A DNA stretch of 64,000 nucleotides from positions 6,743-70,742 of the forward strand of contig CAKKRP010000028.1 in assembly GCA_919902765.1 (NCBI GenBank). Reading direction: 5' to 3'. Numbering within the stretch: the first letter of the stretch is position 1; every line of letters begins with the position of its first letter. The notes beneath the pieces are model-generated. The model did no database searches. It saw nothing but the letters and a program-made list of their open reading frames with translations, and had not been told where the DNA came from. Source of the stretch: Gammaproteobacteria bacterium (lineage in GTDB: Bacteria; Pseudomonadota; Gammaproteobacteria; S012-40). Shown piece after piece: positions 2,520 to 62,967 of the stretch. Made by a program: the position numbers and the translations under genes.

Positions 2520-2729
2520 GGCGGTCTAAACTAAATAATGTGTATCCGTTGTACATGCAACAAGCGTGACCGATTGGCGGGGGATTAGCAGCAACGGGGC
2601 GCTTGTAGCATATTTGGCGCATTATCAACATTTTGGCGCTAAAAGTTTAGAATTCAATGCAGGTCAGGGCTACGCAATCGCTAGGCCATCTAAATTAGCG
2701 TCTCGCGCGGAAATATTGTAATGGCGAAG

Positions 2730-14551: not shown

Positions 14552-16735
14552 ATGGCACAGGTAAAACTGGTCTATAACGCAGATAGGGGTTGGATGATTC
14601 CCATAACCGGAGAAGGGGTAGATAGTAGGCTAGGCGGCGCTCAGTCGAGGATCTGTTATGTCGATGATTCGCGCACCTCCACCTATGTTACAACCAAGGT
14701 TTTGAAGCAATACGGCTACGCGGTTGAACATTTCGAGCGTAGCGATGCTGCGTTAGAGGTTTTGCTGGATCAACATTTTGATCTGTTGTTGTTGGATTTT
14801 GCCGCCTCTGGCGCAGAGGGGTTGGGCGGTGAACACCTAATCCGCATCATACGCGGCAGCGGACATCCACGCAGTGCAGTGTTGCCGATTATCGTATTGG
14901 TGGGGAATAACGATCAAGCGGCGGTAGGTCAACTGAAACAATCCGGCGCCAACGACGTCATCATGAAACCGCTCAAAGGCAAAGAGCTGGACCAGGTGAT
15001 ACGACGCCTAGTCGCAAACTACCATAACCATCTTGGAATGGCCCCTGCGCATAAGGCCGCCGTAACGCCCGCGATAGATAGCGCAAACATCAAATCCAGC
15101 GGTGGGGCGGCATCAACGCGTCCGAAAAAAGTATATTCCGTATTAGAGTTGCAGCAGCGTTTTGGCGAGATTCCGACGGGCAAGACGCAAGAACATTCTG
15201 CTGCGCCGCCTACCCCGGAAACCTCACCTACGTCAGCAGCCCCAGCGGCGCCAAGGTCAACGCAAGATGTTCCGATTTTAGATAATGCCGTGCGCGGCAG
15301 CGAAGAGCGTGGCGCAGACATTACGCAAACAGTCCCCACGCTACAAACGCTGGCGACGATTGTAGATGCGCGTATTGTGGAAAAACTGTCGGCGGCGGTA
15401 GCCCAAAAATCTGAGCAATTGGCGGTCATAGATGCGCGCGGCGAGGTTATCCATGAAGCCGAGACTAAAATGCTACCACTGGCCAAACCTGCTGCGCAAG
15501 CACAAAAAAATAACACACCTGTTACGGATGCTACAACTCCTTTAGACAGTGGGTTGATGGCATTGCTGGAAAAGTTAGAGCACGGTCAAGACCGCACCGC
15601 CCCCAATCCATTTCAAAGTTCGTATATGCCGCCCAAGCTGGATTGGATGGCGCCCGCAAAAAATGTGCTTTCATGGAAGCTGATTGCGATAGGCGTGGGG
15701 ATAGGCGTTGCGATATTCGGGTATCAAAAATGGACTACGCGCGAATCGGCGGCATTCAATGTCGTAGTCGCGGAACGGGGTGCCATTTATGAATCGATTT
15801 CCGTTCCGGCCAAGGTGGTCAGCAAACGCATCGCCGAAATCACACCTTATTCTGCTGGGCAACTGATCAAGATCGAAGTTAAGGAAGGCGATAGCGTCGC
15901 CACCGGGCGGGTCTTAGCGGTATTGGATGACAGGGATGCGCAGAGTAACGTCAAACGCACGCAAGCGACGTTGTTGAGTATGGAAGAAGAAGTCAGCCGT
16001 ACGAACAAAAATCTACAGCGTCTACAACGCGCCCTCGAATTGGGCGCTGTTTCACGCCAACGCGTAGAAGACGCGGAAGGCGAGTGGCGCGCCGCGACCG
16101 CCCGTCAGAGTATTACGGAAGAGGAATTACGCTCTACTAAATTGGCCTTGGAACGGTTGCAAATCGTCGCCCCTTTTGATGGGGTAGTGACCTCTATTAT
16201 CGCGAATTCCGGCAAATGGATCGCGCCACCGGAAATTATCATGACGGTGGTGGATATCGCCGCCCAAGAAGTGATTGCGAAAGTGGATGCCGCCGATGCG
16301 CCGGCGATACAAATCGGCCATGAAGTGATGCTATCTAACGAGTCCTTTGCCGGGAAGAAATGGAAAGAAAAGGTCTCGCGCGTTGCGGCGACCACCAAGA
16401 AAGATAATGCGCCGAATTCGATAGATGTCGTTATTACGCTGAGCGCCAGCGCGCCCGCGTTACGGGTAGGCCAACAAGTGGATGCAGAAATTCGTTTGCG
16501 TGGCAAGTCGGATGTGGTAAAGATCCCTGTGCATGCCTTGATCAACAAAAGCGGATCGCCGATGGTGCCGGTGTTGCAGGGAGACATCGTGCGTCTCGTA
16601 CCGGTGGTGACCGGGATAGAAGATATTACCTCCGTAGAAATAGTGCGTGGGATAGAAGACGGCGAACAAATCGTTATAACAAACGGCAAAGAAGTCAATG
16701 ACGGCCAACACATACGTGTGTTGGGCAATAGTTAA
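14552..16735 (+). CDS. Response-regulator receiver domain fused to HlyD-family membrane fusion protein (periplasmic adaptor)
   Basis: The N-terminus has a CheY-like REC (ICYVDDS…LLLLDF…IIVLVG…IMKPL). A long Ala/Pro/Thr-rich linker and a TM helix (LSWKLIAIGVGIGVAIFGY) follow. The C-terminal region has HlyD/MacA-like biotin-lipoyl and beta-barrel regions (AKVVSKRIAEITPYSAGQLIKIEVKEGDSVATGRVLAVLD…). Confidence 0.75.
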   Translation: MAQVKLVYNADRGWMIPITGEGVDSRLGGAQSRICYVDDSRTSTYVTTKVLKQYGYAVEHFERSDAALEVLLDQHFDLLLLDFAASGAEGLGGEHLIRIIRGSGHPRSAVLPIIVLVGNNDQAAVGQLKQSGANDVIMKPLKGKELDQVIRRLVANYHNHLGMAPAHKAAVTPAIDSANIKSSGGAASTRPKKVYSVLELQQRFGEIPTGKTQEHSAAPPTPETSPTSAAPAAPRSTQDVPILDNAVRGSEERGADITQTVPTLQTLATIVDARIVEKLSAAVAQKSEQLAVIDARGEVIHEAETKMLPLAKPAAQAQKNNTPVTDATTPLDSGLMALLEKLEHGQDRTAPNPFQSSYMPPKLDWMAPAKNVLSWKLIAIGVGIGVAIFGYQKWTTRESAAFNVVVAERGAIYESISVPAKVVSKRIAEITPYSAGQLIKIEVKEGDSVATGRVLAVLDDRDAQSNVKRTQATLLSMEEEVSRTNKNLQRLQRALELGAVSRQRVEDAEGEWRAATARQSITEEELRSTKLALERLQIVAPFDGVVTSIIANSGKWIAPPEIIMTVVDIAAQEVIAKVDAADAPAIQIGHEVMLSNESFAGKKWKEKVSRVAATTKKDNAPNSIDVVITLSASAPALRVGQQVDAEIRLRGKSDVVKIPVHALINKSGSPMVPVLQGDIVRLVPVVTGIEDITSVEIVRGIEDGEQIVITNGKEVNDGQHIRVLGNS

Positions 16736-16804
16736 TTTTAGTTCCAGGTTCCCTTAAACAAATTTATCTCGAATCCGCTGTGCGACAAGGGTCAGTGTGA
16801 GGAT

Positions 16805-17530
16805 ATGGCGTTTTCTATTCCCAATTTTTCGAGCAACAAAAGCAATGTTCGTCCGATCATACAATTGGAAGGCGTTTCTAAATCATACACCATTGAGCAT
16901 GCCAGCATCGTCGCATTAAACGAAGTTTCGCTGACCATTTACCCCGGTGAATTTGTTGCGGTGACCGGCGCGTCAGGCTCCGGCAAATCGACGTTGATGG
17001 CGCTCATTGGATGCCTGGACCGGCCCGATACCGGCGATATAAACCTGGACGGCGAACCGGTAGGCCACATCAACGATGAGCGGATAGCCACACTACGCAA
17101 TAGAAGAATTGGATTTATTTTCCAGTCGTTTAATTTGATACCACGGTTGACTACGCTGCAAAATGTTGAATTACCAATGGTTTATGCAGGTACTCCACCG
17201 TTGAAAAGGCGTCGGCATGCGATGATTGCGCTGCAAATTGTGGGTATGCAACAACGCGCGCAACATACCCCCACGCAGTTATCCGGCGGGCAGCAACAAC
17301 GTGTCGCGATAGCGCGCGCGCTGGTCAATAACCCCGATATCATACTAGCGGATGAACCGACCGGTAGTTTGGATGCCGGGAATGTCGATGAGGTGATGAA
17401 GTTGCTGTCGCAGCTCAATAAAAACGGCAAAACCATCGTCATAGTCACGCACGATATGCAAGTGGCGAATTACGCGCAGCGCACCCTGTATATGCGCGAC
17501 GGCACTATTATATCGGACATTAGGCGATAA
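16805..17530 (+). CDS. MacB/LolD-type ABC transporter ATP-binding protein
   Basis: Walker [11 protein letters not shown]-loop, signature [15 protein letters not shown] and Walker [12 protein letters not shown] are present. Confidence 0.9.
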
Positions 17531-17532
17531 AC

Positions 17533-18795
17533 GTGCGTACTGCGGCGGATTGGAAAGAATACCTGGGTGAATCCTTAGCGCAAGCGATGTTGGCGTTAAA
17601 GGACAATCGTCAACGCACGTTGATGAGCATTATCGGCGTAGCCGTGGGCATCGCAGCGGTGATGTCGGTAGGCATTGTCAGCCAAGGGGGCAGGCAATAT
17701 ATTTTCAGTGAGTTGGAGAGCTTTGGTCTCAAAACGTTATGGGTTTATCGAGATCGTGACCAGAAAAATTCCTTAGACCTGGCGCGCGAAGGCAGTGGGA
17801 TCACCAATGAAGACTATGCAGCGCTGTTGACCGGCGGTTGTTGCAGTACGGTAGCGCGTTTTAGCGCCGTAGTATATCCCATGGATTGGCAGGCCTCCAT
17901 CAAATTGGGGAGCTTGCAGGTGCGGGCCAATGTAGAGGGTGTGGATACCGAATATCTCAATATTAATAATGACCAAGTGAGTCAAGGGCGTCCGTTTTCC
18001 ACTGAGGATATCAAACGTCGTCAAGCCGTGGTGCTGATCGGCGAGTCGGTACGTAAGTCCTTGTTTAACAATCATCCCTTACCGGTAGGCAAAACCTTGC
18101 GGATAGGCGAAACGCAATTTACTGTGATCGGATTGCTCAAGGAAAAACGCCGGGATTTTTTAACCAGCATGGGCGCAACACAGGAATTTGACGTGAACAA
18201 TCGCGTGTTGATTCCGTATACGCTGTTTCAGCAAATGTTGGGCATACAAGAAATCCAAACGTTACAGGCAGAGGTGTTGGATCAAAAAAAAATTAATCCC
18301 GGGATCGCTGAAATACAGGATTTTTTGTCCAAACAACATCGCGGGCGCTATAAATATAGGGCCGACAGTATGCTCGAATGGACCCAAACCGCGAATCGCA
18401 TTGTCTATGGCATTACGTTTATCGGCGTCTTAGCCGCATCTGTGGCGTTGTTTGTGGGCGGGATAGGGATAATGAATATCATGTCGACCGCCGTGATAGA
18501 ACGCACACGCGAAATCGGTATACGGATGGCGATAGGCGCGAAACGCAAAGACATTTTGTGGCAGTTCCTCATCGAGGCGGCATTGATAAGTCTGATCGGC
18601 GGCCTGCTGGGATTGTTACTCGGTGCGGGCGTGTTGGTGATACTCGCGCGCTGGACGGGTTTTCCGCTGCAAGCGGATGCCGTGTTGATTTTATTGGCCT
18701 TGTTAGTCGCAGTCGGCGTGGGGTTGGCCTCAGGTTTTTATCCGGCGCGGCGCGCCGCTGGGATGAATCCAGTGGATGCCTTGCGCTACGAGTAA
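17533..18795 (+). CDS. ABC transporter permease, FtsX/MacB-like
   Basis: 420 aa with an N-terminal TM, a large periplasmic domain and a C-terminal FtsX-type 3-TM bundle (GIGIMNIMSTAVIERTREIGIRMAIGA). Translationally coupled to the ATPase. Confidence 0.85.
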   Translation: MRTAADWKEYLGESLAQAMLALKDNRQRTLMSIIGVAVGIAAVMSVGIVSQGGRQYIFSELESFGLKTLWVYRDRDQKNSLDLAREGSGITNEDYAALLTGGCCSTVARFSAVVYPMDWQASIKLGSLQVRANVEGVDTEYLNINNDQVSQGRPFSTEDIKRRQAVVLIGESVRKSLFNNHPLPVGKTLRIGETQFTVIGLLKEKRRDFLTSMGATQEFDVNNRVLIPYTLFQQMLGIQEIQTLQAEVLDQKKINPGIAEIQDFLSKQHRGRYKYRADSMLEWTQTANRIVYGITFIGVLAASVALFVGGIGIMNIMSTAVIERTREIGIRMAIGAKRKDILWQFLIEAALISLIGGLLGLLLGAGVLVILARWTGFPLQADAVLILLALLVAVGVGLASGFYPARRAAGMNPVDALRYE

Positions 18796-27619: not shown

Positions 27620-28453
27620 TCAACTGCTGACGTGCCGTTCGCGCATCTCCGAAAGCGTCTTACATTCTATACACAGCGTTGCCGTTGGGCGTGCCTCTAA
27701 GCGGCGGATACCGATTTCGTCGCCACACTGTTCACAAAAGCCATATTCATGTGCGTCTAACGCCGCAAACGCCTCATCGATCTTTTTAATGAGTTTGCGT
27801 TCGCGATCGCGCGCGCGCAGCTCCATCGTGAACTCGGACTCTTGTGTTGCGCGATCATTGGGATCAGGGAAATTGGCGGCCTCGTCTTGCATGTGATGAA
27901 CGGTACGATCCACTTCCTCCATTAACACGCGCTTCCATTCGCGCAGAATGTTGCGGAAATGCGCCTCTAGGCCTGAGCTCATGTAGTCCTCGCCCTTCTT
28001 TTCCACATAAGGCGCGATTCCTAAAAAACCTAGCGTGCCACTTGCCCCGGAATTGGCGTTAGGGGCAGGGTTAGAGGAACTTGGCCGTGGCGACGCAGCG
28101 GGCTTGGCCGGCATAGGCTTGGGGGTGCTGCCGACTTTGGCCGTAACAGGCGTAGGCGCAGGTGCTTTAGGCGCGGGTTTTTCGGCCGCTGGTGCAGCGC
28201 TGGGTTTGCTGACAACCTTGGTACGCGCAGGCGTTTTGGTCGCAGTTTTGGCGGCAACGGACGCTTTGCTCGCGTTGGACTTAGTAGGCGTAGATTTCAC
28301 TATAGTTTCCTTAGCGGTCGCTTTGGTCGGTTTGGTCGGTTTAGCTTTGGGCGGCGGTGACTTTTTGGCCGCAGGTTTGGAAGGCGACGACTTGCCACCA
28401 GCCTTAGCGGGTCCTTTGGCTGGTTTGCTGGATTTGGGTTTTTTAACTACCAT
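27620..28453 (-). CDS. dksA: DksA/TraR-family RNA-polymerase-binding transcription factor with long Lys/Ala/Pro-rich histone-H1-like N-terminal extension
   Basis: The C-terminal approximately 130 aa is a canonical DksA coiled-coil with a C4 zinc finger (CEQCGDEIGIRRLEARPTATLCIECK). The N-terminal approximately 140 aa is KKPKSSKPAKGPAKAGGKSSPSKPAAKKSPPPKAKPTKPTKATAK…, resembling H1/AlgP-type KAP repeats. Confidence 0.8.
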   Translation of the reverse strand: MVVKKPKSSKPAKGPAKAGGKSSPSKPAAKKSPPPKAKPTKPTKATAKETIVKSTPTKSNASKASVAAKTATKTPARTKVVSKPSAAPAAEKPAPKAPAPTPVTAKVGSTPKPMPAKPAASPRPSSSNPAPNANSGASGTLGFLGIAPYVEKKGEDYMSSGLEAHFRNILREWKRVLMEEVDRTVHHMQDEAANFPDPNDRATQESEFTMELRARDRERKLIKKIDEAFAALDAHEYGFCEQCGDEIGIRRLEARPTATLCIECKTLSEMRERHVSS

Positions 28454-42424: not shown

Positions 42425-42536
42425 GCATAGACTTGAAACACCGCTAGCAATAATTTCATAAGCAAAGTGCAGGCCATTAAGTGCTGTACGATTTGTAGCA
42501 AAAACAGTATGATAGTCATGCGTCCATCTGAGGGAT

Positions 42537-49174: not shown

Positions 49175-50047
49175 GTGGATAGACGTGGCTTTTTAAAGGC
49201 GTTCGCGTTAGGCACCGTGGTCACTAGTTGTTACCGGTTGTCTGCGCATGCGGAAGACGTTCCATTGGAAGATGTTGAAGATAATTCCGAGCTCGATCTG
49301 AGCGGAGATTTTGACGAGCAGTATATTAAGGACTATCTCGAAAAAATTCATAACTACGATAAGGTTCATAAGGACGATCTTTTTGTCAAACCAAGAGATT
49401 TGCGCACGTTGCGCGGCACAGTGCTACGTTTACAGAAGGTGCAGAACTATGTAGGACCCGCCAATTTTGCATTGTTAAGTTTCGATAATTGTCTAAAACA
49501 TGCGGCGCGCGTTTCGCGCATCGGTGAATTTACCAAGTATGAAATCGAATTTTTAGAATCTATCTTTTATACAAACGCCAAGGATTACGGATTTTTCGGC
49601 GAAAAACCCGTTGATAAATTGACCGCCGCGCCGCATTCCGAAGAAGTCGAAAAGATTTCCGGTACCGGCAATTATTTGATGAGAGGCGCGCCGATAAAAC
49701 TCTATAACAAGATACGCAGGGACATTGGTAATTCCGTTATTCTAACGTCAGGCGTACGCGGCGTGATGAAACAAATGCATTTATTCTTGACCAAGACGAT
49801 CGCTTCCGGTGGCAACCTGTCGATGGCGTCGCGGTCATTGGCGCCACCGGGACATTCGTTCCATGGGGTAGGCGATTTCGATGTAGGCAAAGTCGGTTGG
49901 GGGGCGCGTAATTTCACCGAATATTTTGCCGACACCATGGAATACCGGCGGTTGACCGACATGGGCTTCATCAAAATTCGTTACCCTGAAGACAATTTTT
50001 TGGGTGTACGTTTTGAACCCTGGCACATCAAAGTCAACAGTGCATAA
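49175..50047 (+). CDS. Tat-secreted peptidase M15 (VanY-like D-Ala-D-Ala carboxypeptidase family)
   Basis: Twin-arginine signal MDRRGFLKAFALG. The C-terminus has an M15 metal-ligand pattern (…PGHSFHGVGDFDVG…FEPWHIKV). Confidence 0.6.
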   Translation: MDRRGFLKAFALGTVVTSCYRLSAHAEDVPLEDVEDNSELDLSGDFDEQYIKDYLEKIHNYDKVHKDDLFVKPRDLRTLRGTVLRLQKVQNYVGPANFALLSFDNCLKHAARVSRIGEFTKYEIEFLESIFYTNAKDYGFFGEKPVDKLTAAPHSEEVEKISGTGNYLMRGAPIKLYNKIRRDIGNSVILTSGVRGVMKQMHLFLTKTIASGGNLSMASRSLAPPGHSFHGVGDFDVGKVGWGARNFTEYFADTMEYRRLTDMGFIKIRYPEDNFLGVRFEPWHIKVNSA

Positions 50048-50670
50048 TTATGCAATTGCCAAAAAATAGTAGTCGCTAAGATGTCTTCTATGGTCTAATC
50101 CCCCCCTTTGTCCCTCTAACGTTAATATCTCGCAAGTTGTGACAGCCGCTGTGTTTTAGTGTCAACCGCTAGGCTGTTACCCCGTTACAGGTTGTCGGGA
50201 GGGCACGACAATGACCTTGGATAGCGTAAACCTACGTTGCATTGATTTATTTTTCCGCCCGCGCGTGCAGGCATTGCATTGGCCGGTAGACTTATTTTGG
50301 CGATTACCGGACCATGCGCGCCGTGACGCCAATGTACTGCGCGAACCCAGCGTAAATTTATTTGAGCTTGAGGTGTTGCTCTCGACTGCGGCAAATGTGC
50401 CGTCGTTGTGCGCGCAATTTTTGGACCTGCATATGCCCAATCGTGGCGAATTTATACGCCTATCAATGCGGCGGGGTAGAATACCGATGTTGAGTCCGGC
50501 GTGCGCGGCAGCACTCCAAGCCGCTGCGTAAGTTTAACCCAAATTTCCCAATCCTCAGTGCGCCGTAACGGCGCACGCCCGCTTGCTGGCACGCCTCGGT
50601 TTGGTGCATCAGCACCTGTCCCCACGCATTAATATTGCGTAAATAACTGATTATTATATATATTTTAGGA

Positions 50671-50684
50671 TGGCACGTAAGCTG
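50671..50684 (+). promoter_or_regulatory. Putative sigma-54 (-24/-12) promoter upstream of narK-like gene
   Basis: TGGCAC-gtaag-CTGCT fits the GG-N10-GC sigma-54 consensus (TGGCAC-N5-TTGCW). It lies about 35 nt upstream of the transporter start codon. Confidence 0.5.
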
Positions 50685-50716
50685 CTGATAGCCTTCGACG
50701 GCAGCGTGCCGGAAGC

Positions 50717-52006
50717 GTGTCGAGAGCAGTTATGAATTTTCGTGAATTTAAACAAGCGGGCCATTGGCCCACCTTACTAGCCGCGTTTTTATATTTTGAT
50801 GTGAGTTTTATGGTGTGGGTGGTATTAGGCCCGCTGTCACTTTATGTCAGTCAAGATTTGGCGTTGAGTATTGAAGAAAAATTTACGATAGTGGCGGTGC
50901 CGATACTCGCAGGTGCATTGTTGCGTATGCCACTGGGTTTTCTCGCAGATCACATAGGGCCAAAACGCACCGGTATTGCAGCGCAGTCTATCGTTATTGC
51001 AGGAATGGCCTACGCCTGGATTTTTGGTTTGCATTCCAAGGTCGAGGTGGAATTATTGGGTATTGTTTTAGGTGTGGCAGGCGCAAGTTTCGCAGTAGCG
51101 CTGCCACAAGCCTCGCGGTGGTATCCGCCTAAATATCAAGGGGCGGTCATGGGTATCGCGGGTGCCGGAAATATGGGCGTCGTGCTCGATTCGATGTTTG
51201 TACCGTGGATGGCGGAACATTGGGGTTGGCAATCCGTGTTTGGTATATTGATTATCCCGTTAGCAATAGTACTCGGCCTATATAGTTTGATGGCCAAAGA
51301 TGCGCCTCAGTCACGCGCGCCGGTATCGTTAAAAAATTATGCTGTAGTGTTGCAAGATCGCGATACTTGGTGGTTTATGTTTTTTTATTCCATCACGTTC
51401 GGTGGCTTCGTGGGCCTAGGGAATGCGTTGCCGATTTATTTCACCCATTGGTATCACGCATCTGGAATCACGGCGGGGCTATTGGCCGCCTGCGTGGTAC
51501 TGGCGGGTTCGATGGCGCGGCCCGTCGGTGGGGTCGTCGCGGATCGTTTTGGCGGTATACGTACGCTACAGATTTTATTTGTGTTCATCGCATGCACCTA
51601 TGGTGCAGTAGCGCTGCTGCCGCAAGGACCTGCGCCCACGATGCTGGATGGCGCAAAGGTTGCGGGCTGGACGTTAGCGGAATTGCCCGCGATTGCATGG
51701 ATTGCAATGACAATATTTTTATTGGGCGCGACCGCGTTAGGGATGGGCAACGGATCGGTGTTTCAATTGGTGCCGTTGCGATTTCGCAACGAAATCGGCG
51801 TCATGACGGGCCTGGTCGGTGCCGCAGGCGGAATCGGAGGCTTTTTTCTGGCCAAGTCCTTAGGACTATCGAAAGGCATAACCGGGGGATTTACGGCCGG
51901 ATTTTCGATATTTGCCGGGCTCGCAATCATCGGGCTCGTTGGCTTGGTAGTCGTTAAAACGCGTTGGCGCACTACGTGGGGCGCGGTGTCAGGTGCGCGC
52001 GTGTGA
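50717..52006 (+). CDS. narK: MFS nitrate/nitrite transporter (NNP family, NarK/NasA-like)
   Basis: 12-TM MFS protein with glycine-rich nitrate/nitrite porter signature regions (…GIAGAGNMGVV…, …GLVGAAGGIGGFF…). First gene of the nitrate assimilation cluster. Confidence 0.85.
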   Translation: MSRAVMNFREFKQAGHWPTLLAAFLYFDVSFMVWVVLGPLSLYVSQDLALSIEEKFTIVAVPILAGALLRMPLGFLADHIGPKRTGIAAQSIVIAGMAYAWIFGLHSKVEVELLGIVLGVAGASFAVALPQASRWYPPKYQGAVMGIAGAGNMGVVLDSMFVPWMAEHWGWQSVFGILIIPLAIVLGLYSLMAKDAPQSRAPVSLKNYAVVLQDRDTWWFMFFYSITFGGFVGLGNALPIYFTHWYHASGITAGLLAACVVLAGSMARPVGGVVADRFGGIRTLQILFVFIACTYGAVALLPQGPAPTMLDGAKVAGWTLAELPAIAWIAMTIFLLGATALGMGNGSVFQLVPLRFRNEIGVMTGLVGAAGGIGGFFLAKSLGLSKGITGGFTAGFSIFAGLAIIGLVGLVVVKTRWRTTWGAVSGARV

Positions 52007-52043
52007 CGAATGAAATGCCAACGAAATATTATCATATGTACCA

Positions 52044-53759
52044 TTGATGATGACCCAATCCGCAATGGAAGTTCGTGTCGGCTTTTTAACTGAGGCAGGG
52101 CGGCGACCCAGCAACGACGATTTTATTTTGGCTGCAATGGGAGAAAACTCCCTGCTTGCCGACGTTGTGGTTTCGATCGCGGACGGCACGGGTGGAAGCC
52201 CGGAGGGGAGGATGGCGGCAGAAACCGCCGTACGCGGATTTTTAGACGCCTACCTCCACCAACCAAAAACCCTCAGCGTAGAACGCGCCGCCGCCAATGC
52301 GTTAAATTGCATGAATAATTGGCTATATGCGCAAGGTCGTAGCGGCCACCATCGCGAAGGATTGGTAACGACATTCACCGCATTAATTTTACGCGCACGC
52401 GAAGCGCATATTGTGCATGTCGGCGATACGCGTATTTATCGCTTGCGTGGCGAACGCCTGGCGCGTTTAACGCAGGATCACACCCATCCGCATCCCGATT
52501 TACATCATGTGTTGGTGCGCGCAGTGGGGATGGAAGATCAAGTGCGTGCGGACTATCAGCGCCATTCATTGGAGGCGCACGATAGATTTTTATTGTGTAC
52601 CGACGGCGTACACGCGGCATTGAACGAGGGAAAAATATGCGCCCTTATGGCGATGCGCGGCACCCCGCAAGAAGACGCGGCGCGTATTGTCGAGTCCGCG
52701 CTAGCAGCGAGTGGACAAGACAACGCCACGGCGTTGGTATTGGATATTTTGGCCTTACCTTCTGCGTTACATAGAGACATCGAATCGTCATTAGCGGAAT
52801 TACCCATCGCGGAGTTACCGCAGGCCGGAGAAATCACTGATGGCTATCGGTTGTTGTCCGCAATCTCAAATGGACGCTATAGCCGATTATTCCATGCGTT
52901 AGATACAAAAAATTCTAATCGCGAAGTGGCGCTGAAATTCCCACATCCACGAGTGGCGCAAGATGCAATTTATAGAAGTGCATTTACGCGCGAATCGTGG
53001 GTGGCCTCTCAAGTGCAAAGTCCGTATCTCGCGGAAGTAATCGAACCGGAACCGGGCCGCCGTACGCGTTTATACGTGGTAATGCCGTTTTATCGCGGTG
53101 AAACGTTAGAATGTAGACTAAAACGTCAACCTGCGGTGAGCTTGGTCGAAGGAGTGGATATTGCGATCAAATTATCTAAGGCGATCTACGCGCTCAATCG
53201 TAGGCGAATCATACACCGCGATATTAAACCGGAAAATATTTTATTGGAACTAGGCGCTGCGGGCGCAAGTGGTTTACGCTTGATCGATTTGGGGGTGGCG
53301 CGTCTGCCCGACGTAAACGCTGACGGCGATGTAGTTCCGGGTACGCCCAGTTACATGGCGCCCGAGTTGATTCTTGGACAAGCCGGTGATGAATTCTCTG
53401 AGGTATACGCGCTAGGTGTTAGTTTGTATCGCATGTGGAGCGGTGGTGAATATCCGTACGGAGAAATAGAACCCTTCTCTACGCCACGCTATACAAAACG
53501 TGTTGCGCTGGCGCGTTACCGTCCTGATCTTCCCGCGTGGCTTGATCAAGTGTTAGCGCGCGCAACCGCAGTTGATCCCGCACAACGCTATGCCGACACC
53601 ATGGAATTCGCATTTGAATTGGAAAACGCGGCGCTCAAAGGGGCGCAATTACGCGTGCGGCACAGCCCCTTAATAGAACGCGATCCGGTGCGATTTTGGC
53701 AGGTGATTTCTGCAATTTTATTGTTAATGTTGATTCTAGCATTGGCGTTCCACAGTTGA
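52044..53759 (+). CDS. PP2C-type Ser/Thr phosphatase fused to Hanks-type Ser/Thr protein kinase, C-terminal TM anchor
   Basis: N-terminal PP2C motifs (GRRPSNDD, ADGTGGS, VGDTRIY, LTQDH, CTDGV, QDNATALV). The C-terminal kinase carries VALKF, HRDIKPENILL, IDLGVAR and GTPSYMAPE. The terminal hydrophobic helix is FWQVISAILLLMLILALAF. Confidence 0.8.
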   Translation: MMMTQSAMEVRVGFLTEAGRRPSNDDFILAAMGENSLLADVVVSIADGTGGSPEGRMAAETAVRGFLDAYLHQPKTLSVERAAANALNCMNNWLYAQGRSGHHREGLVTTFTALILRAREAHIVHVGDTRIYRLRGERLARLTQDHTHPHPDLHHVLVRAVGMEDQVRADYQRHSLEAHDRFLLCTDGVHAALNEGKICALMAMRGTPQEDAARIVESALAASGQDNATALVLDILALPSALHRDIESSLAELPIAELPQAGEITDGYRLLSAISNGRYSRLFHALDTKNSNREVALKFPHPRVAQDAIYRSAFTRESWVASQVQSPYLAEVIEPEPGRRTRLYVVMPFYRGETLECRLKRQPAVSLVEGVDIAIKLSKAIYALNRRRIIHRDIKPENILLELGAAGASGLRLIDLGVARLPDVNADGDVVPGTPSYMAPELILGQAGDEFSEVYALGVSLYRMWSGGEYPYGEIEPFSTPRYTKRVALARYRPDLPAWLDQVLARATAVDPAQRYADTMEFAFELENAALKGAQLRVRHSPLIERDPVRFWQVISAILLLMLILALAFHS

Positions 53760-53798
53760 ATTCAACTGCTATACACCATTGACTCCAGTGCCGGAGAT

Positions 53799-53815
53799 TG
53801 CACCATAGTGGTGCA
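53799..53815 (+). promoter_or_regulatory. NtrC (NR-I) binding site
   Basis: Perfect palindrome TGCACCA-tag-TGGTGCA, which is the NtrC consensus TGCACCA-N3-TGGTGCA. It lies about 120 bp upstream of a sigma-54 promoter. Confidence 0.65.
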
Positions 53816-53935
53816 TAGGCCTGGAAAGCGCTCCCCGCTGTTGTGCATGTAACTTGTTAAGTGGAATTCGATTAAGCATTGACAATCGCACATAACATAT
53901 TGTTAAATATCGTTATTATGACATTTAATGCAGTT

Positions 53936-53950
53936 TGGCATGGAGCTTGC
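53936..53950 (+). promoter_or_regulatory. Sigma-54 promoter for nirBD-nasA
   Basis: TGGCAT-ggagc-TTGC matches the -24 GG / -12 GC spacing of sigma-54 promoters. It lies about 45 nt upstream of the nirB GTG start, which has a GGAGGTGG SD. Confidence 0.6.
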
Positions 53951-53993
53951 CGAGTGACTACTAATAGGCGCTTGGTGCCGACGGAGGTGGAAC

Positions 53994-56447
53994 GTGCAAG
54001 AGCAATTGGTTTTGGTCGGTAATGGTATGGCGGGTGTGCGTACATTGGAAGAATTATTAAAAATTGCGCCTGATAAATATGCTATCACGGTGTTTGGTGC
54101 GGAATGTTACGGAAATTACAATCGCATTTTGTTATCACCGGTGCTCGCCGGAGAAAAAAACGTCGATGACATCATGTTGAATGATGAACAATGGTATGTA
54201 GACAATAAAATAACCTTGCACAAAGGCAAGACCATTACACATATTGACCGGCGCAAACGTATCGTCGTCGCGGACGACGGCACCACCGCGCATTATGATC
54301 GCTTACTGCTAGCGACAGGCTCCGATCCCTTCATTTTGCCGATTCCGGGCAGCCACCTGCCCGGCGTAATCAGTTTCCGCGATTTGCATGACGTAGAAAT
54401 TATGTTGGAAACATCGCGCAATTATAAACACGCGGTCGTTATCGGGGGCGGATTGTTAGGATTGGAAGCCGCCAACGGCCTGCGCAAACAAGGTATGAGC
54501 GTAACCGTCGTGCATATTCATGGCCATTTGATGGAACGCCAACTCGATTATGCGGCCGCTAGCCTATTAAAAAAAGCCATGGAACAAGACGGCATACGCT
54601 TTTTTTTAGAAAAAAATACGGCTGCTATTTTAGGACAGGAACGTGTCACCGGAATCCAATTCAAAGATGACCAGCGCATAGATGCAGACCTCGTGGTCAT
54701 GGCGGCCGGTATACGCCCGAATATACGTTTGGCAAAATCGGTGGGCCTGCAATGCGATAAAGGTGTATTGGTCAATGACACGATGCAAACCTTCGACCCC
54801 CGCATTTACGCGGTCGGCGAGTGCGTACAACATAGGGGCAGTACCTACGGATTGGTCGCACCTTTGTTCGAGCAAGCAAAGGTGTGTGCAAATCATTTAG
54901 CAGCCTACGGTATCGCGCGTTACGAAGGTAGCGTGACATCTACGAAGTTAAAAGTGACCGGTATCGAAGTGTTTTCCGCCGGAAATTTCCATAGCACGGA
55001 TAAAGACGACGAAATCGTGTTTACCGATGGCGCGCGCGGTATTTATAAAAAAATAGTACTACGCAACAATAAAATTCAAGGCGCGGTACTCTATGGTGAC
55101 ACCATGGACGGCGCTTGGTACTTCCAACTTATGCGTGAAAAGGCGGATGTTGCGCACATGCGCGACAATATCTTGTTCGGTCAAGCGCATCTAGGAGACG
55201 CCGGGCATGGCGATGAAAAACAACACGTCAACGCCTTGCCCGCGAATGCCGAGATTTGCGGCTGTAACGGCGTATGTAAAGGCACCATAGTTGACGCCAT
55301 TATCAATAAAAAACTGTTTACCTTGGATGAAGTGCGCGCGCACACCAAGGCATCTAGTTCTTGTGGTTCATGCACGGGATTGGTGGAATCGTTGTTAGCG
55401 GCTACGGTGGGCGGAGACTATTCAGCCAATCCCAAAAAGAAACCGTTGTGTCATTGTACCGATTACGCGCATGATGAAGTGCGCACGCTCATCGACAAGC
55501 GCGGGTTGAAATCTATGGATACCGCCATGCGTTCGATGGATTGGAAAACGCCGGACGGATGCCATGTGTGTCGGCCGGCCTTAAATTTCTATTTGCTCGC
55601 GCGATGGCCTGCGGAATATCAAGATGATGCGCAATCGCGCTTGGTCAACGAGCGTATGCACGCGAATATTCAAAAAGATGGAACATACTCCGTGGTGCCG
55701 CGCATATGGGGCGGTGTGACCAATCCTGCCGAACTGCGTGCGATTGCGGATGTCGCGGAAAAATATCAAATCCCGTCGGTGAAAATTACCGGGGGGCAAC
55801 GTATAGATCTGCTGGGGGTGACCAAGGAACAACTGCCCGCCGTATGGGCGGATTTGACCGAGGCGGGATTCGTATCCGGTCATGCCTATGGAAAATCCCT
55901 GCGCACCGTAAAAACATGTGTGGGCTCGGAATGGTGCCGTTACGGTACGCAGGATTCCACGGGCATGGGTGTCAAATTGGAAAAACTTACGTGGGGATCG
56001 TGGACGCCCCACAAATTCAAAATGGCCGTTTCCGGTTGTCCGCGCAATTGCGCTGAAGCCACCATAAAAGATTTTGGCGTGGTCGCGGTGGATTCGGGTT
56101 GGGAGCTACATGTAGGCGGTAACGGCGGTGTGAAAGTGCGTGCGACCGATTTCTTGTGTAAGGTGAATAGCGAGGCCGAGGTGATGGAATATGCTGCGGC
56201 CTTCATGCAGCTTTATCGTGAAGACGCCCGTTATTTGGAACGCACCGCGCCGTGGATAGAACGTGTGGGCCTTGCCTATGTAAAGCAACACATCGTCGAA
56301 AATGAGATTCGACGCAAACAATTGTATGAAAGTTTTAAAGACTCGCAACGCGCAGCGCAACACGACCCGTGGGCGCGTTTAAGCGCCGGTAACCATGCCG
56401 AGGGGTTCAAGACGTTAACAATGTCGAATCAAGAGGAGGTCGCGTGA
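53994..56447 (+). CDS. nirB: Assimilatory nitrite reductase [NAD(P)H] large subunit
   Basis: N-terminal FAD/NAD Rossmann fold (LVLVGNGMAGVRTLEEL), a BFD-like 2Fe-2S region, and a siroheme/4Fe-4S sulfite-nitrite reductase domain (…TCVGSEWCRYG…SGCPRNCAEA…). 817 aa. Confidence 0.95.
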   Translation: MQEQLVLVGNGMAGVRTLEELLKIAPDKYAITVFGAECYGNYNRILLSPVLAGEKNVDDIMLNDEQWYVDNKITLHKGKTITHIDRRKRIVVADDGTTAHYDRLLLATGSDPFILPIPGSHLPGVISFRDLHDVEIMLETSRNYKHAVVIGGGLLGLEAANGLRKQGMSVTVVHIHGHLMERQLDYAAASLLKKAMEQDGIRFFLEKNTAAILGQERVTGIQFKDDQRIDADLVVMAAGIRPNIRLAKSVGLQCDKGVLVNDTMQTFDPRIYAVGECVQHRGSTYGLVAPLFEQAKVCANHLAAYGIARYEGSVTSTKLKVTGIEVFSAGNFHSTDKDDEIVFTDGARGIYKKIVLRNNKIQGAVLYGDTMDGAWYFQLMREKADVAHMRDNILFGQAHLGDAGHGDEKQHVNALPANAEICGCNGVCKGTIVDAIINKKLFTLDEVRAHTKASSSCGSCTGLVESLLAATVGGDYSANPKKKPLCHCTDYAHDEVRTLIDKRGLKSMDTAMRSMDWKTPDGCHVCRPALNFYLLARWPAEYQDDAQSRLVNERMHANIQKDGTYSVVPRIWGGVTNPAELRAIADVAEKYQIPSVKITGGQRIDLLGVTKEQLPAVWADLTEAGFVSGHAYGKSLRTVKTCVGSEWCRYGTQDSTGMGVKLEKLTWGSWTPHKFKMAVSGCPRNCAEATIKDFGVVAVDSGWELHVGGNGGVKVRATDFLCKVNSEAEVMEYAAAFMQLYREDARYLERTAPWIERVGLAYVKQHIVENEIRRKQLYESFKDSQRAAQHDPWARLSAGNHAEGFKTLTMSNQEEVA

Positions 56448-56782
56448 GTGCATTGGCAGGCAACACAGAATTGGTTTGGCAACGCGTAGGCGCTGCGCAC
56501 ACGATACCCCGCCAAGGGGCGAGGGTGGTCAAAATAGGCGAGGTTAACGTTGCGATATTCAAAAATGTCAGCGATGAAATTTTTGCACTTGAAGATCGCT
56601 GCCCGCATAAAGGCGGGCCTTTGTCGCAAGGCATCGTACATGGGCGGCGCGTGACCTGTCCATTACATAACTGGGTGATAGAATTGCATGATGGCAATGC
56701 CGTCGCGCCGGATATCGGCTGCGTCAAGACCTTTAGCACCAAAGTGGTCAATGGCGACCTCTATATCGCGTTGTCGAAATGA
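56444..56782 (+). CDS. nirD: Nitrite reductase small subunit (Rieske-like)
   Basis: 112 aa with a Rieske-type fold (…EDRCPHKGGPLSQG…RRVTCPLHNW…), overlapping the nirB stop. Confidence 0.85.
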   Translation: MSALAGNTELVWQRVGAAHTIPRQGARVVKIGEVNVAIFKNVSDEIFALEDRCPHKGGPLSQGIVHGRRVTCPLHNWVIELHDGNAVAPDIGCVKTFSTKVVNGDLYIALSK

Positions 56783-56821: not shown

Positions 56822-59473
56822 ATGCCATCTATACCTACCACCTGTCCTTATTGTGGCGTAGGGTGCGGCCTTATTGCGGAGCCGCAAGGAGATACCTTTG
56901 CGGTGCGCCCGGATCGCGATCACCCCGCCAATCTTGGACGTATATGTACCAAAGGGGCCACGTTAGGTGAGACGCTAGGCTTGCAGGGACGCATCTTAGC
57001 GCCTCTGGTACGGGGGCAAGAGACCGGTTGGGATGCAGCGTTGGAAGAAGTCGCCGGTTCATTTTCGCGCATCATCGCCGAACACGGCCCAGACGCGGTG
57101 GCGTTTTATGTGTCCGGGCAATTGCTTACCGAAGACTATTATGTCGCCAATAAATTGATGAAAGGATTTATCGGTAGCGGCAACATAGATACCAATTCTA
57201 GATTGTGTATGGCATCGGCGGTGGCGGCGCACAAACGCGCCTTTGGCGAGGACATTGTGCCGGGGAATTATGCCGACATCGAGCAGTCGGATCTTACGAT
57301 ATTGGTAGGCTCCAACATGGCGTGGACGCACCCGGTGTTGTACCAACGCCTCGCTGCGTCAAAAGAAAAAAATCCACACAAGCGCGTTGTCGTGATAGAT
57401 CCAAGGCGTACCGCGAGTTGCGATATTGCAGATCTACATTTGGCATTAAAACCAGGTACGGACGGATATTTATACAATGGTTTACTGAATTTTTTGCGCC
57501 GCGAAAACGCCTTCGATTGGGATTATTTAGAACACCACACCCACGGCTTTGCCGCGACACTTAAAGCGGCGCAGGAAAGCAGTGGGACGCTGCCGCAAGT
57601 GGCGCAGGACTGCGGGCTTGACGCCGCGCAGGTTGCACAATTTTACCGTTGGTTCGCACAAACGGCTAAAACCACGACCCTGTTTTCGCAAGGCATCAAT
57701 CAATCGTCTAGCGGTGTAGATAAAGGCAATGCGATTATCAACGTACATCTCGCAACGGGGCGCGTGGGCAAACCCGGTGCGAGCCCGTTCTCATTAACTG
57801 GGCAACCGAACGCGATGGGCGGGCGCGAAGTGGGTGGTCTGGCCAACACTTTGGCGGCACACATGGATTTTGCGCCGGAAAATTGCGCTATGGTCGGCGA
57901 ATTTTGGCAAACATCGCGCATCGCAACTCAGCCCGGCTACAAGGCGGTGGACATGTTCGAGGCCATTGCCGACGGGCGCATTAAGGCGGTTTGGATTATG
58001 GGCACCAATCCAGTGGTCAGCTTGCCGAATTCCGGACATATACGTGCAGCGCTAAAAAAATGTTCTTGTGTGATCGTCTCCGATTGCGCGCGATATACCG
58101 ACACCACGGCCTATGCGCATGTGCTATTGCCTGCCGCCGCGTGGGGAGAAAAGAGCGGCACAGTGACCAATTCCGAACGTTGTATATCGCGACAACGCGC
58201 TTTTTTGCCGACCCCAGGCTTGGCGCAGCCCGATTGGTGGATAATCACCCAGGTAGCGCACAAATTGGGTTACGCGAAGTCCTTTGATTACACGTCCAGC
58301 GCGCAGATTTTTCGCGAACACGCCGCCCTCAGCGCATACCATAATCATGGCCAACGCATTTTTGATATCGGCGCTTACGCGGATATCAGCGATCAACAAT
58401 ACGAGGCATTAACACCTATGCAATGGCCGTTGCCGGTGAACGTCCATCGAGGCACTGCGCGCCTATTTGCGCACGGTGGATTTGCGACGGCAAACCATAA
58501 GGCGCAATGGACGCCGATCATTCCGCGTGCTCCCCATGTAGCCGCAAATACAACATATCCGTTCATGCTTAACACCGGCCGGGTGCGTGATCAGTGGCAC
58601 ACGATGACACGCACGGCAAAAGTCCCACGTTTGTTGCAACACATCAGCGAGCCCTTGTTGTATATGCAACCATTGGATGCGCAACGCCTGGGCATGATCA
58701 ATGGCGACATCGCGCGCGTTACTTCTGCGCATGGTTTTGCGCTAGCACGAGTTGAATTTTCGCACGATATTGGCGCTGGCCAGTTATTTATGCCTATGCA
58801 TTGGAATGCGCAATTTGCCGTAAATGGCAGCGTTAATGCGATGGTTGCCTCGACCGTCGATCCGATTTCAGGACAACCGGAATTCAAGGCGACGGCGGTA
58901 CATGTGCGGCCTTTTAACGCGGCGTGGTATGCGGTGCTATTCACCACCGTGCCGATTGATACGGTTATGCCTGAATATTGCGTGCGCGTACCAGAGTCCA
59001 GTGTGACCCGATATGAAATGGCGGATACTAAAACTGCGTTAGACTGGCATACGTGGTTCGAGCAATTAATAAAAGATAGCGATGAGATCATCAAATATGC
59101 GGATCAACGGTTAGGTATAGTGCGTATGGGTAGCGTGCGCGCGGGGCAACTGCAAGCGGTACTATTTGTGTCGCCCAAACCGGTGATCGTTGATCGCGCG
59201 TGGTTGGCTGCGTTATTTGTGACGCCCATGTTGGCTACGCATGATCGCTCCGCGATACTGAGCGGACGCCCTCCAGTAGGGCGTGTCGAGGGCGGGGCGA
59301 TGGTATGTATTTGCATGGGTGTGCAGCGCAATACAATCGAACGCGCTATACACGCGCAAGGCGTTACGAACCTACAGGAATTACAAACATTAACTACCGC
59401 AGGTACATGCTGCGGCGCATGCGTGCCGCAATTGCAAGCGATCTTGACGCAAAATATGTTGCGCGCAGGTTAA
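56822..59473 (+). CDS. nasA: Assimilatory nitrate reductase catalytic subunit (molybdopterin oxidoreductase) with C-terminal BFD-like [2Fe-2S] domain
   Basis: N-terminal 4Fe-4S motif CPYCGVGCG…C, MGD-binding domains, and a C-terminal CICMGV…CCGAC BFD-like cluster motif. 883 aa. Confidence 0.9.
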   Translation: MPSIPTTCPYCGVGCGLIAEPQGDTFAVRPDRDHPANLGRICTKGATLGETLGLQGRILAPLVRGQETGWDAALEEVAGSFSRIIAEHGPDAVAFYVSGQLLTEDYYVANKLMKGFIGSGNIDTNSRLCMASAVAAHKRAFGEDIVPGNYADIEQSDLTILVGSNMAWTHPVLYQRLAASKEKNPHKRVVVIDPRRTASCDIADLHLALKPGTDGYLYNGLLNFLRRENAFDWDYLEHHTHGFAATLKAAQESSGTLPQVAQDCGLDAAQVAQFYRWFAQTAKTTTLFSQGINQSSSGVDKGNAIINVHLATGRVGKPGASPFSLTGQPNAMGGREVGGLANTLAAHMDFAPENCAMVGEFWQTSRIATQPGYKAVDMFEAIADGRIKAVWIMGTNPVVSLPNSGHIRAALKKCSCVIVSDCARYTDTTAYAHVLLPAAAWGEKSGTVTNSERCISRQRAFLPTPGLAQPDWWIITQVAHKLGYAKSFDYTSSAQIFREHAALSAYHNHGQRIFDIGAYADISDQQYEALTPMQWPLPVNVHRGTARLFAHGGFATANHKAQWTPIIPRAPHVAANTTYPFMLNTGRVRDQWHTMTRTAKVPRLLQHISEPLLYMQPLDAQRLGMINGDIARVTSAHGFALARVEFSHDIGAGQLFMPMHWNAQFAVNGSVNAMVASTVDPISGQPEFKATAVHVRPFNAAWYAVLFTTVPIDTVMPEYCVRVPESSVTRYEMADTKTALDWHTWFEQLIKDSDEIIKYADQRLGIVRMGSVRAGQLQAVLFVSPKPVIVDRAWLAALFVTPMLATHDRSAILSGRPPVGRVEGGAMVCICMGVQRNTIERAIHAQGVTNLQELQTLTTAGTCCGACVPQLQAILTQNMLRAG

Positions 59474-62070: not shown

Positions 62071-62475
62071 TTATGTGGTACTAATTTCTTTGAGCAATTC
62101 GGGGTGTCGATCCAATAACTGAAATAGCTTCACCAGCGCGAGCGGCGGCTTAGTCCTGCCGCTCTCGTAACGAGAAAACGCATTGACTCCACCGCCGAAA
62201 ATCAACGCTGCTTCGCGCTGGTCTAGACCAAGTTTTTTACGCACCTTGGCGATAAAAGCGGGATCAATGATGGAGGCGTTCACCTGTTTATTAAACTTCA
62301 CCATCGCCTGATGGGTGCGCGCAGATTCTGTAACGCCTAACACAATCTCTCCACAAGCAGAGCAGTATTCACCCATCACTGCGGGAATTGTGAATGTCTC
62401 GCCTTTATAGATATAGGGGATGTCACGCGTATCATGCACCAGTGTGGCCGCTCCGCAAGATGGACACTGCATCTT
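62071..62475 (-). CDS. mqsA: MqsA-like antitoxin (YgiT-type zinc finger + XRE HTH)
   Basis: N-terminal CxxC…CxxC zinc ribbon (MQCPSCGAATLVHDTRDIPYIYKGETFTIPAVMGEYCSACGEIVL) resembling MqsA/YgiT, and a C-terminal HTH (…LGLDQREAALIFGGGVNAFSRYESG…). No mqsR-like ORF is adjacent. Confidence 0.65.
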   Translation of the reverse strand, partial: KMQCPSCGAATLVHDTRDIPYIYKGETFTIPAVMGEYCSACGEIVLGVTESARTHQAMVKFNKQVNASIIDPAFIAKVRKKLGLDQREAALIFGGGVNAFSRYESGRTKPPLALVKLFQLLDRHPELLKEISTT

Positions 62476-62967
62476 ATCGCTCCTTGAAGACGCATTAGGC
62501 GCATCTTCTGTCAGAACCAAATCGATATTATCGAAAAATACGTTTTATTAGGCCGCATTTATTTGATACATAATAATATTGCGTGTGGTAGATAAGTCGC
62601 GACGTTATTTGCCAACGTTAACCAAGTAGGTAGTCGGCTAAAAGGACTTTATACTTGAGTCTATTGGGCGTTGACCGTGTATAGAAGAGGACTGAAGCGT
62701 TAATGCGTTTTTGAAGCCTTCAGGCGATATTTTTGGAGCTATTCTAGAGCAACGTTTGGGGTGAGGTACAACGTCTTACTTGTGGATAAAATGAAGTAAC
62801 TTTCGCTTTTTTGAGTATTGGTATTTAATAATATAGTAAAGGCCGCATGTAGCGGCCTTTCATTTGGTGCTCTGAAAGCTTGTTAGCGGACAGGGCGCAT
62901 TTCCCGATGTAGTAACAAGGTGTACTATACATATCGTCAATAGGGAAATCAACTATCAGGGGGAAGT

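Follow-up and report, generated by a model that had tools for sequence, protein, structure and literature searches.

The current analysis provides a regulatory reading of a nitrate assimilation (nas) gene cluster from an uncultured groundwater gammaproteobacterium, contained in a 64,000-nucleotide stretch of DNA (64 kb, hereafter the window). The intergenic region between a protein kinase gene and nirB very probably serves as an NtrC-dependent sigma-54 promoter for nirB-nirD-nasA, one that operates without an antitermination leader. The features directly observed here are the sequence elements themselves, their rarity, their positional conservation among orthologous loci and the lack of leader structure.

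The cluster begins with a NarK-family MFS transporter gene (narK-like; 50732..52006, +), followed by a gene for a PP2C phosphatase fused to a Ser-Thr kinase, with a hydrophobic tail at the C terminus (52044..53759, +); both genes were assigned by Pfam and NCBIfam. Next are nirB, encoding the large subunit of NAD(P)H nitrite reductase (53994..56447, +; TIGR02374, 960 bits, plus Pfam domains), nirD, encoding the small subunit and overlapping nirB by 4 nt (56444..56782, +; TIGR02378 and Rieske_2), and a nasA-type assimilatory nitrate reductase gene, the product of which carries a C-terminal BFD-like [2Fe-2S] domain (56822..59473, +; Pfam and NCBIfam). A preliminary description of this DNA had called nirB, nirD and nasA downstream of the promoter, and Pfam and NCBIfam searches confirmed all three. 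The ATG at 50732 yields MNFREF, which is the start seen in orthologs of the narK-like transporter, and GTG 53994, preceded by the Shine-Dalgarno sequence GGAGG at 53983-53987, is a sound start for nirB because the orthologs begin at the equivalent residue. Contigs encoding an identical NirB come only from Hainich groundwater metagenomes, and the next-closest NirB proteins in the genome and metagenome collections are 72-74% identical and belong to uncultured gammaproteobacteria, Thioalkalivibrio and Methylococcaceae. Domain searches found no ntrB, ntrC, rpoN, ANTAR or NIT genes in the 64-kb window.

Several genes elsewhere in the window also deserve mention in their own right. An unusual fusion joins a response-regulator receiver domain to an HlyD-type membrane-fusion protein (727 aa), and its gene is followed by those for a MacB-like ABC ATPase and permease, all within 14552-18795 (+). 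At 62071-62520 (-) there is an MqsA-type antitoxin/HTH gene (Pfam E = 2e-60) with no mqsR toxin ORF of at least 40 aa recognised upstream, which looks like an orphan antitoxin-like regulator. The 277-aa DksA-domain ORF at 27620-28453 (-) has its DksA domains only in residues 164-267, and this reflects either a long N-terminal extension or an over-called start codon.

The principal element upstream of nirB is a strong predicted NtrC-type upstream activator site at 53799..53815 (unstranded), the perfect dyad TGCACCA-TAG-TGGTGCA = TGCACCATAGTGGTGCA, which agrees with the extended NtrC consensus TGCACCA-N3-TGGTGCA at 14/14 specified positions. The exact palindrome claimed in the preliminary description is present, and it is the only match to the extended dyad with ≤1 mismatch in the 64 kb, versus 0.03 expected from shuffles. 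Five sites in the window match the 12-base NtrC core with ≤2 mismatches, and this one alone is perfect. Likewise, the TGGCAT-N5-TTGC sequence that had been placed about 120 bp downstream of the palindrome was found at 53936..53950 (+), following a gap of 120 bp. This predicted sigma-54 -24/-12 promoter element (TGGCATggagcTTGC, TGGCAT-ggagc-TTGC) has its GG at 53937-38, 130 bp from the dyad centre, and its GC at 53949-50, with 10 nt between them, and it ends 43 bp upstream of GTG 53994. The sequence TGGCATggagcTTGCc matches TGGCAC-N5-TTGCW at 9/10 core bases, the one departure being a T for C in the -24 region, a variant also found in 16/69 orthologous promoters. TTGC is followed by C and not by W, as it is in 1/69 orthologous promoters. 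When both strands of the 64 kb were scanned, only two copies of TGGCAY-N5-YTGC were found, both of them on the sense strand and preceding the start codons of the two nas transcription units by 45-60 bp. Two intergenic TGGCCT-N5-TTGC matches were seen as well, at 2674-2688 (-), upstream of MarR/FliK-like genes, and at 42462-42476 (-), where an unannotated ORF of 273 aa, itself followed by an ABC1-kinase gene, begins 38 bp downstream; they may represent weak sigma-54 elements or have arisen by chance.

Classical NtrC enhancers comprise two or more sites, permitting oligomerisation. Upstream of nirB there is only one strong NtrC site, together with a tentative, weak second NtrC-like site at 53831..53847 (unstranded; CTCCCCGCTGTTGTGCA, 4 mismatches), which is located 32 bp from the strong site and has a good right half-site and a poor left one. 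The spacer that separates the activator site from the promoter (53850..53935, unstranded) is AT-rich, having 28% G+C vs 51% for the window, and contains an IHF-like match on the minus strand at 53893-53905 (TAACAATATGTTA; 1 mismatch to WATCAANNNNTTR), although such consensus matches are weak. Both the weak second site and the AT-rich, IHF-like spacer would fit the classical enhancer-loop-promoter design, with the spacer possibly serving in DNA bending, but they are suggestive only. At the E. coli glnAp2 promoter, NtrC dyads are found >100 bp upstream of the -24/-12 element, with two strong sites centred at -140 and -108 and several weak ones. The window resembles glnAp2 in the placement of its dyad >100 bp upstream of -24/-12 and in the possible second site ~32 bp away, whereas it differs in having one perfect and one doubtful site and in a dyad centre that would lie at about -155 relative to the predicted transcription start.

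An alternative would be that the palindrome acts at the RNA level, forming a hairpin at the 3' end of the kinase mRNA, and not at the DNA level; it is located 40 bp past the stop codon of the kinase gene and can fold into a 7-bp hairpin. This is highly improbable, as the palindrome is not followed by a U tract, its sequence is the NtrC consensus and not that of any GC-rich stem, and the site is retained by orthologs in which the upstream gene is divergent.

Motif-position statistics were used in place of nucleotide alignment for the comparison with other species, because no close relatives are available (best NirB match 72-74%). From 160 related nirB loci, with NirB ~70% identical, we obtained 141 distinct 300-bp upstream regions and accepted -24/-12 elements with ≤1 mismatch and NtrC-like dyads with ≤2 mismatches located 60-200 bp upstream of -24/-12. 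A -24/-12 element is present on the sense strand of 75/141 upstream regions, and 28/141 have an NtrC-like dyad in addition. The corresponding counts are 3 and 0 on the antisense strand, 0-3 and 0 in three controls drawn from nirB coding sequence, and ~1 and 0 in shuffled sequence. The order and spacing of elements, described earlier as textbook, are a recurrent arrangement at orthologous nirB loci and are absent from the controls. Among the orthologous loci, the -24/-12 element occupies positions -47 to -100 relative to the nirB start in 69, and in 28 a distance of 72-127 bp separates the NtrC-like sites from the -24 GG downstream of them, a main range just outside of which falls the 130 bp measured in the window. 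Methylococcaceae loci in the ortholog set share the layout (e.g. L042), perfect dyads also occur in three loci (L058, L062 and L064), and the spacings of NtrC-like site pairs peak at 13 and 31 bp. Furthermore, positions of the sequence logos that had not been selected are nonetheless constrained: R follows TGGCAC (34 A + 34 G of 69), W follows TTGC in 65/69, and A and T occupy dyad positions 7 and 11 (24/31 each), as they also do in the window dyad. These unselected positions are independent evidence that the predicted sigma-54 and NtrC sites in the ortholog set are real.

It is also evident that this arrangement is not shared by all members of the family. There is no -24/-12 element within 300 bp of nirB in 66/141 orthologous regions, and the kinase-nirB interval has none in some loci that share the gene order of the window (L014, L017, L034, L076 and L100), which indicates that the internal promoter is not universal. 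Moreover, no terminator could be located 3' of the kinase gene in the window, and read-through from an upstream promoter may consequently add to nirB expression. Whether nirBD-nasA could be expressed mainly in this manner, or from a sigma-70 promoter within the spacer (TTGACA at 53879; ATAACA-16-TATTAT at 53892-53919), must therefore be considered. The scan for sigma-70 promoters returns a best match of 9/12, but this candidate was rejected as no better than background, given 20 sigma-70-like matches vs 17.6 expected in shuffles. Together with the positional conservation of the sigma-54 and NtrC pair in many orthologs, this leaves read-through or a sigma-70 promoter improbable as the main source of nirBD-nasA transcripts.

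A different question concerns the identity of the activator. The sigma-54 promoter could be real, but served by another enhancer-binding protein, either an NtrC paralogue or a nitrate/nitrite-responsive regulator recognizing an NtrC-like dyad. NtrC has been named through motif similarity only, and its gene is not encoded in the 64-kb window. We nonetheless regard another activator as quite unlikely, seeing that the dyad is identical to the NtrC consensus at each of the 14 specified positions, and we know of no other enhancer-binding protein with a TGCACCA-N3-TGGTGCA site. In addition, the NtrC motif that ChIP-exo revealed at nirBD of a related gammaproteobacterium resembles that of E. coli (PMC12799797). 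NtrC consequently remains the favoured activator.

The preliminary description had also claimed that there is no room for a NasR/NasT-type leader. With C 53950 taken as -12, transcription would start at 53961-62, yielding a predicted 5' leader of 32-33 nt (53961..53993, +), the folding of which is no better than that of shuffles (z = 0.09). T runs of ≥3 are absent from this leader as well as from that predicted for the transporter unit discussed below, the nirB intergenic region has none of ≥4, and a scan of the nirB upstream region predicted no terminator. The known ANTAR target consists of two stem-loops with hexanucleotide loops, in which the first base is A and the fourth is G, together with a terminator (PMC3369931), and the NalA leader element of P. 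putida measures 75 nt (PMC10783516), which is longer than the predicted window leader. No paired hexaloop hairpins (A1, G4) were found in 53760-53993 or 50532-50731, and Rfam searches of the whole window at gathering thresholds and of 50000-54100 at E ≤5 returned only tRNA and one chance snoRNA match. A hairpin at 50559-50575 was tried as an ANTAR element and rejected, as it has a 3- or 7-nt loop, lacks the A1/G4 bases and is situated upstream of the promoter. The claim has therefore held up, particularly as the same criteria detect real leaders at related loci and in Azospirillum, and these observations support a predicted nirB operon without a NasR/NasT-type antitermination leader.

Such real leaders are a minority among the orthologs. 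Predicted leaders of ≤75 nt are given by 65/75 promoters, the median being 36 nt, while 5/10 of the longer ones (L005, L012, L050, L119 and L130) contain a hairpin with an AACGGC hexaloop and a terminator with a T5-T9 run. These long leaders with the hairpin extend over 110-250 nt, and include that of Azospirillum; L163 8664-8880 also belongs to this minority. For example, on plasmid AZO_p5 of Azospirillum lipoferum 4B, a perfect sigma-54 element (TGGCACGCGGATTGC) is found ~250 nt before nirB, and its leader folds with z = -5.26, the cggacAACGGCgtccg hairpin (AACGGC hexaloop) overlapping a long terminator that is then followed by UUUCUUUUU. Leaders were detected by T-run counts plus folding; a hairpin script with loops ≤8 nt misses the Azospirillum terminator. 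L130, one of the loci with a long ANTAR-type leader, shares its gene order with the window. Nitrate-specific antitermination accordingly looks to have been repeatedly gained or lost within the orthologous nirB family. No ANTAR gene adjoins the long-leader loci L050, L119 and L012, and hence the absence of an ANTAR gene from the 64-kb window says nothing.

Despite the short leader, nitrate or nitrite could still exert control by non-classical means, such as translational control on the short leader, a co-regulator binding the spacer, or the PP2C/kinase protein. As a rule, nas operons are under dual control, being repressed by ammonium and induced by nitrate (PMC10783516), and a conserved narK-kinase pair adjoins nirB in the window. 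We consider this a real but minor possibility. The leader has no conserved structure, the window contains no NIT or ANTAR gene, although adjacency is uninformative in this regard, and P. aeruginosa possesses both the kinase and the NalA leader, which argues that the kinase is not a simple substitute for antitermination. General nitrogen control through NtrC and sigma-54 is the reading we prefer for the nirB promoter.

A second NtrC/sigma-54 unit, which was absent from the preliminary description, likely precedes the narK-like gene. It has a pair of NtrC-like sites spaced by 33 bp, at 50559-75 (TGCGCCGTAACGGCGCA) and 50592-608 (CGCCTCGGTTTGGTGCA), both unstranded, and an AT-rich spacer separates this 50559-50608 pair from a second predicted sigma-54 -24/-12 element at 50671..50685 (+; TGGCACgtaagCTGC), 46 bp before ATG 50732. 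Five loci that share this gene order (L014, L076, L097, L131 and L018) similarly have a -24/-12 element 47-70 bp before the transporter start, with paired NtrC-like sites ~31 bp apart upstream of the transporter promoter. Our confidence in the transporter unit is lower than that in the nirB promoter because its sites in the window are poorer, with 2 and 3 mismatches. The region 50559-50685 also contains three small palindromes (50559-75, 50602-15 and 50624-40), and directly upstream of the narK promoter region there is a 106-aa ORF (50211-50531, +) with no Pfam or NCBIfam match.

Based upon these features, a mechanism can be proposed, in which the transcription start, NtrC as the activator and its binding, rpoN dependence, DNA looping and the extent of the operon are all predictions made from sequence. 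Under nitrogen limitation, phosphorylated NtrC would bind the dyad at 53799-53815, possibly aided by the weak site 32 bp downstream. The AT-rich, IHF-like spacer would loop the DNA, permitting the NtrC ATPase to open the closed complex formed by sigma-54 RNA polymerase on TGGCAT-N5-TTGC. Transcription would then start near 53961-62 and pass via an unstructured leader of 32-33 nt straight into nirB. As there would be no NasR/NasT-type terminator checkpoint, expression at the nirB promoter should track general nitrogen status. Transcription of the narK-like transporter and PP2C/kinase genes is probably driven by the weaker unit, comprising the sites at 50559-50608 and the promoter at 50671-50685.

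The predicted arrangement resembles known systems. The standard model for nas operons combines activation by NtrC-P and RpoN with antitermination by NasST or NasR (PMC10783516), and across Pseudomonadota, sigma-54 promoters are enriched upstream of the genes for NAD(P)H nitrite reductase (PMC12316311). In Klebsiella oxytoca nasFEDCBA and Azotobacter vinelandii nasAB, nitrogen control is exerted by NtrC and sigma-54, much as we propose for the window, but both have a nitrate-responsive terminator leader (NasR or NasST) and their gene content differs, such as the ABC transporter of Klebsiella (PMC10783516; PMC3369931). Methylomonas sp. DH-1 is likewise gammaproteobacterial, and its nirBD belongs to the NtrC regulon, being bound and activated by NtrC according to ChIP-exo and ntrC-deletion RNA-seq, with an E. 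coli-like motif that is conserved across the genus (PMC12799797). It represents a different lineage (NirB ~70% identical), however, and its genome encodes NasT and a NIT-domain protein. In Azospirillum lipoferum 4B, the AZO_p5 nirBD-nasA-cobA cluster shares with the window a sigma-54 element upstream of nirB, but it has a structured leader of ~250 nt and a divergent transporter operon of the ABC type.

Close parallels are found in the nas clusters of P. aeruginosa and P. putida, which, like that of the window, comprise a NarK-type transporter, a Ser/Thr kinase, nirB, nirD and an assimilatory nitrate reductase. In P. aeruginosa, the order is PA1783 nasA, PA1782 ppkB, PA1781 nirB, PA1780 nirD and PA1779 (PMC6954232), and the expression of PA1783, PA1781, PA1780 and PA1779 is down 16-650-fold in ntrB/ntrC mutants (PMC7214821). 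Its nirB is also preceded by a sigma-54 consensus promoter, in this case that of the NalA leader (PMC4253122). Unlike the window, Pseudomonas has the 75-nt NalA, which is read by NasT and contains a terminator in addition to two hairpins with A..G.. hexaloops (PMC10783516), and in the window no cobA follows nasA. It is mainly the absence of an antitermination leader and of cobA that distinguishes the window from the P. aeruginosa-type cluster. Ntr/sigma-54 control of nas genes is already established in Klebsiella, Azotobacter, Pseudomonas and Methylomonas; it is textbook knowledge and not new.

The PP2C/kinase fusion is a further recurrent component of these loci. Its gene is directly 3' of a NarK-family gene in the window and in ~60/160 related nas loci (e.g. 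L049 2443-4179, L052 2460-4196 and L146 378-2075), including pairs that are divergent from nirB and encode a NarK of a different subfamily (~27% identical). By position, it corresponds to PA1782 (ppkB) of P. aeruginosa, and for the function of nas-linked kinases the literature gave only the PA1782/ppkB name. The fusion may regulate the narK-linked transporter. A broader and rather speculative scenario, to which we assign a low probability, is that the short-leader lineages, i.e. the window and most of the 65 related loci, have dropped nitrate/nitrite antitermination and respond to nitrogen status alone through twin NtrC/sigma-54 promoters. The nitrate response would then have shifted to the tail-anchored PP2C/kinase, encoded always directly 3' of narK and possibly phosphorylating the transporter.

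Current understanding of Ntr control is left unchanged by these results. They do provide a regulatory annotation for the nas cluster of an uncultured groundwater gammaproteobacterium, in which expression should track nitrogen limitation, and they point to the narK-linked kinase/phosphatase as a possible regulator. They also outline an ortholog family in which some members have a nitrate-sensing antitermination leader, whereas the majority of members in which a sigma-54 promoter can be recognised, the window included, do not. The presence or absence of such a leader should be useful for predicting when these bacteria consume nitrate in aquifers.
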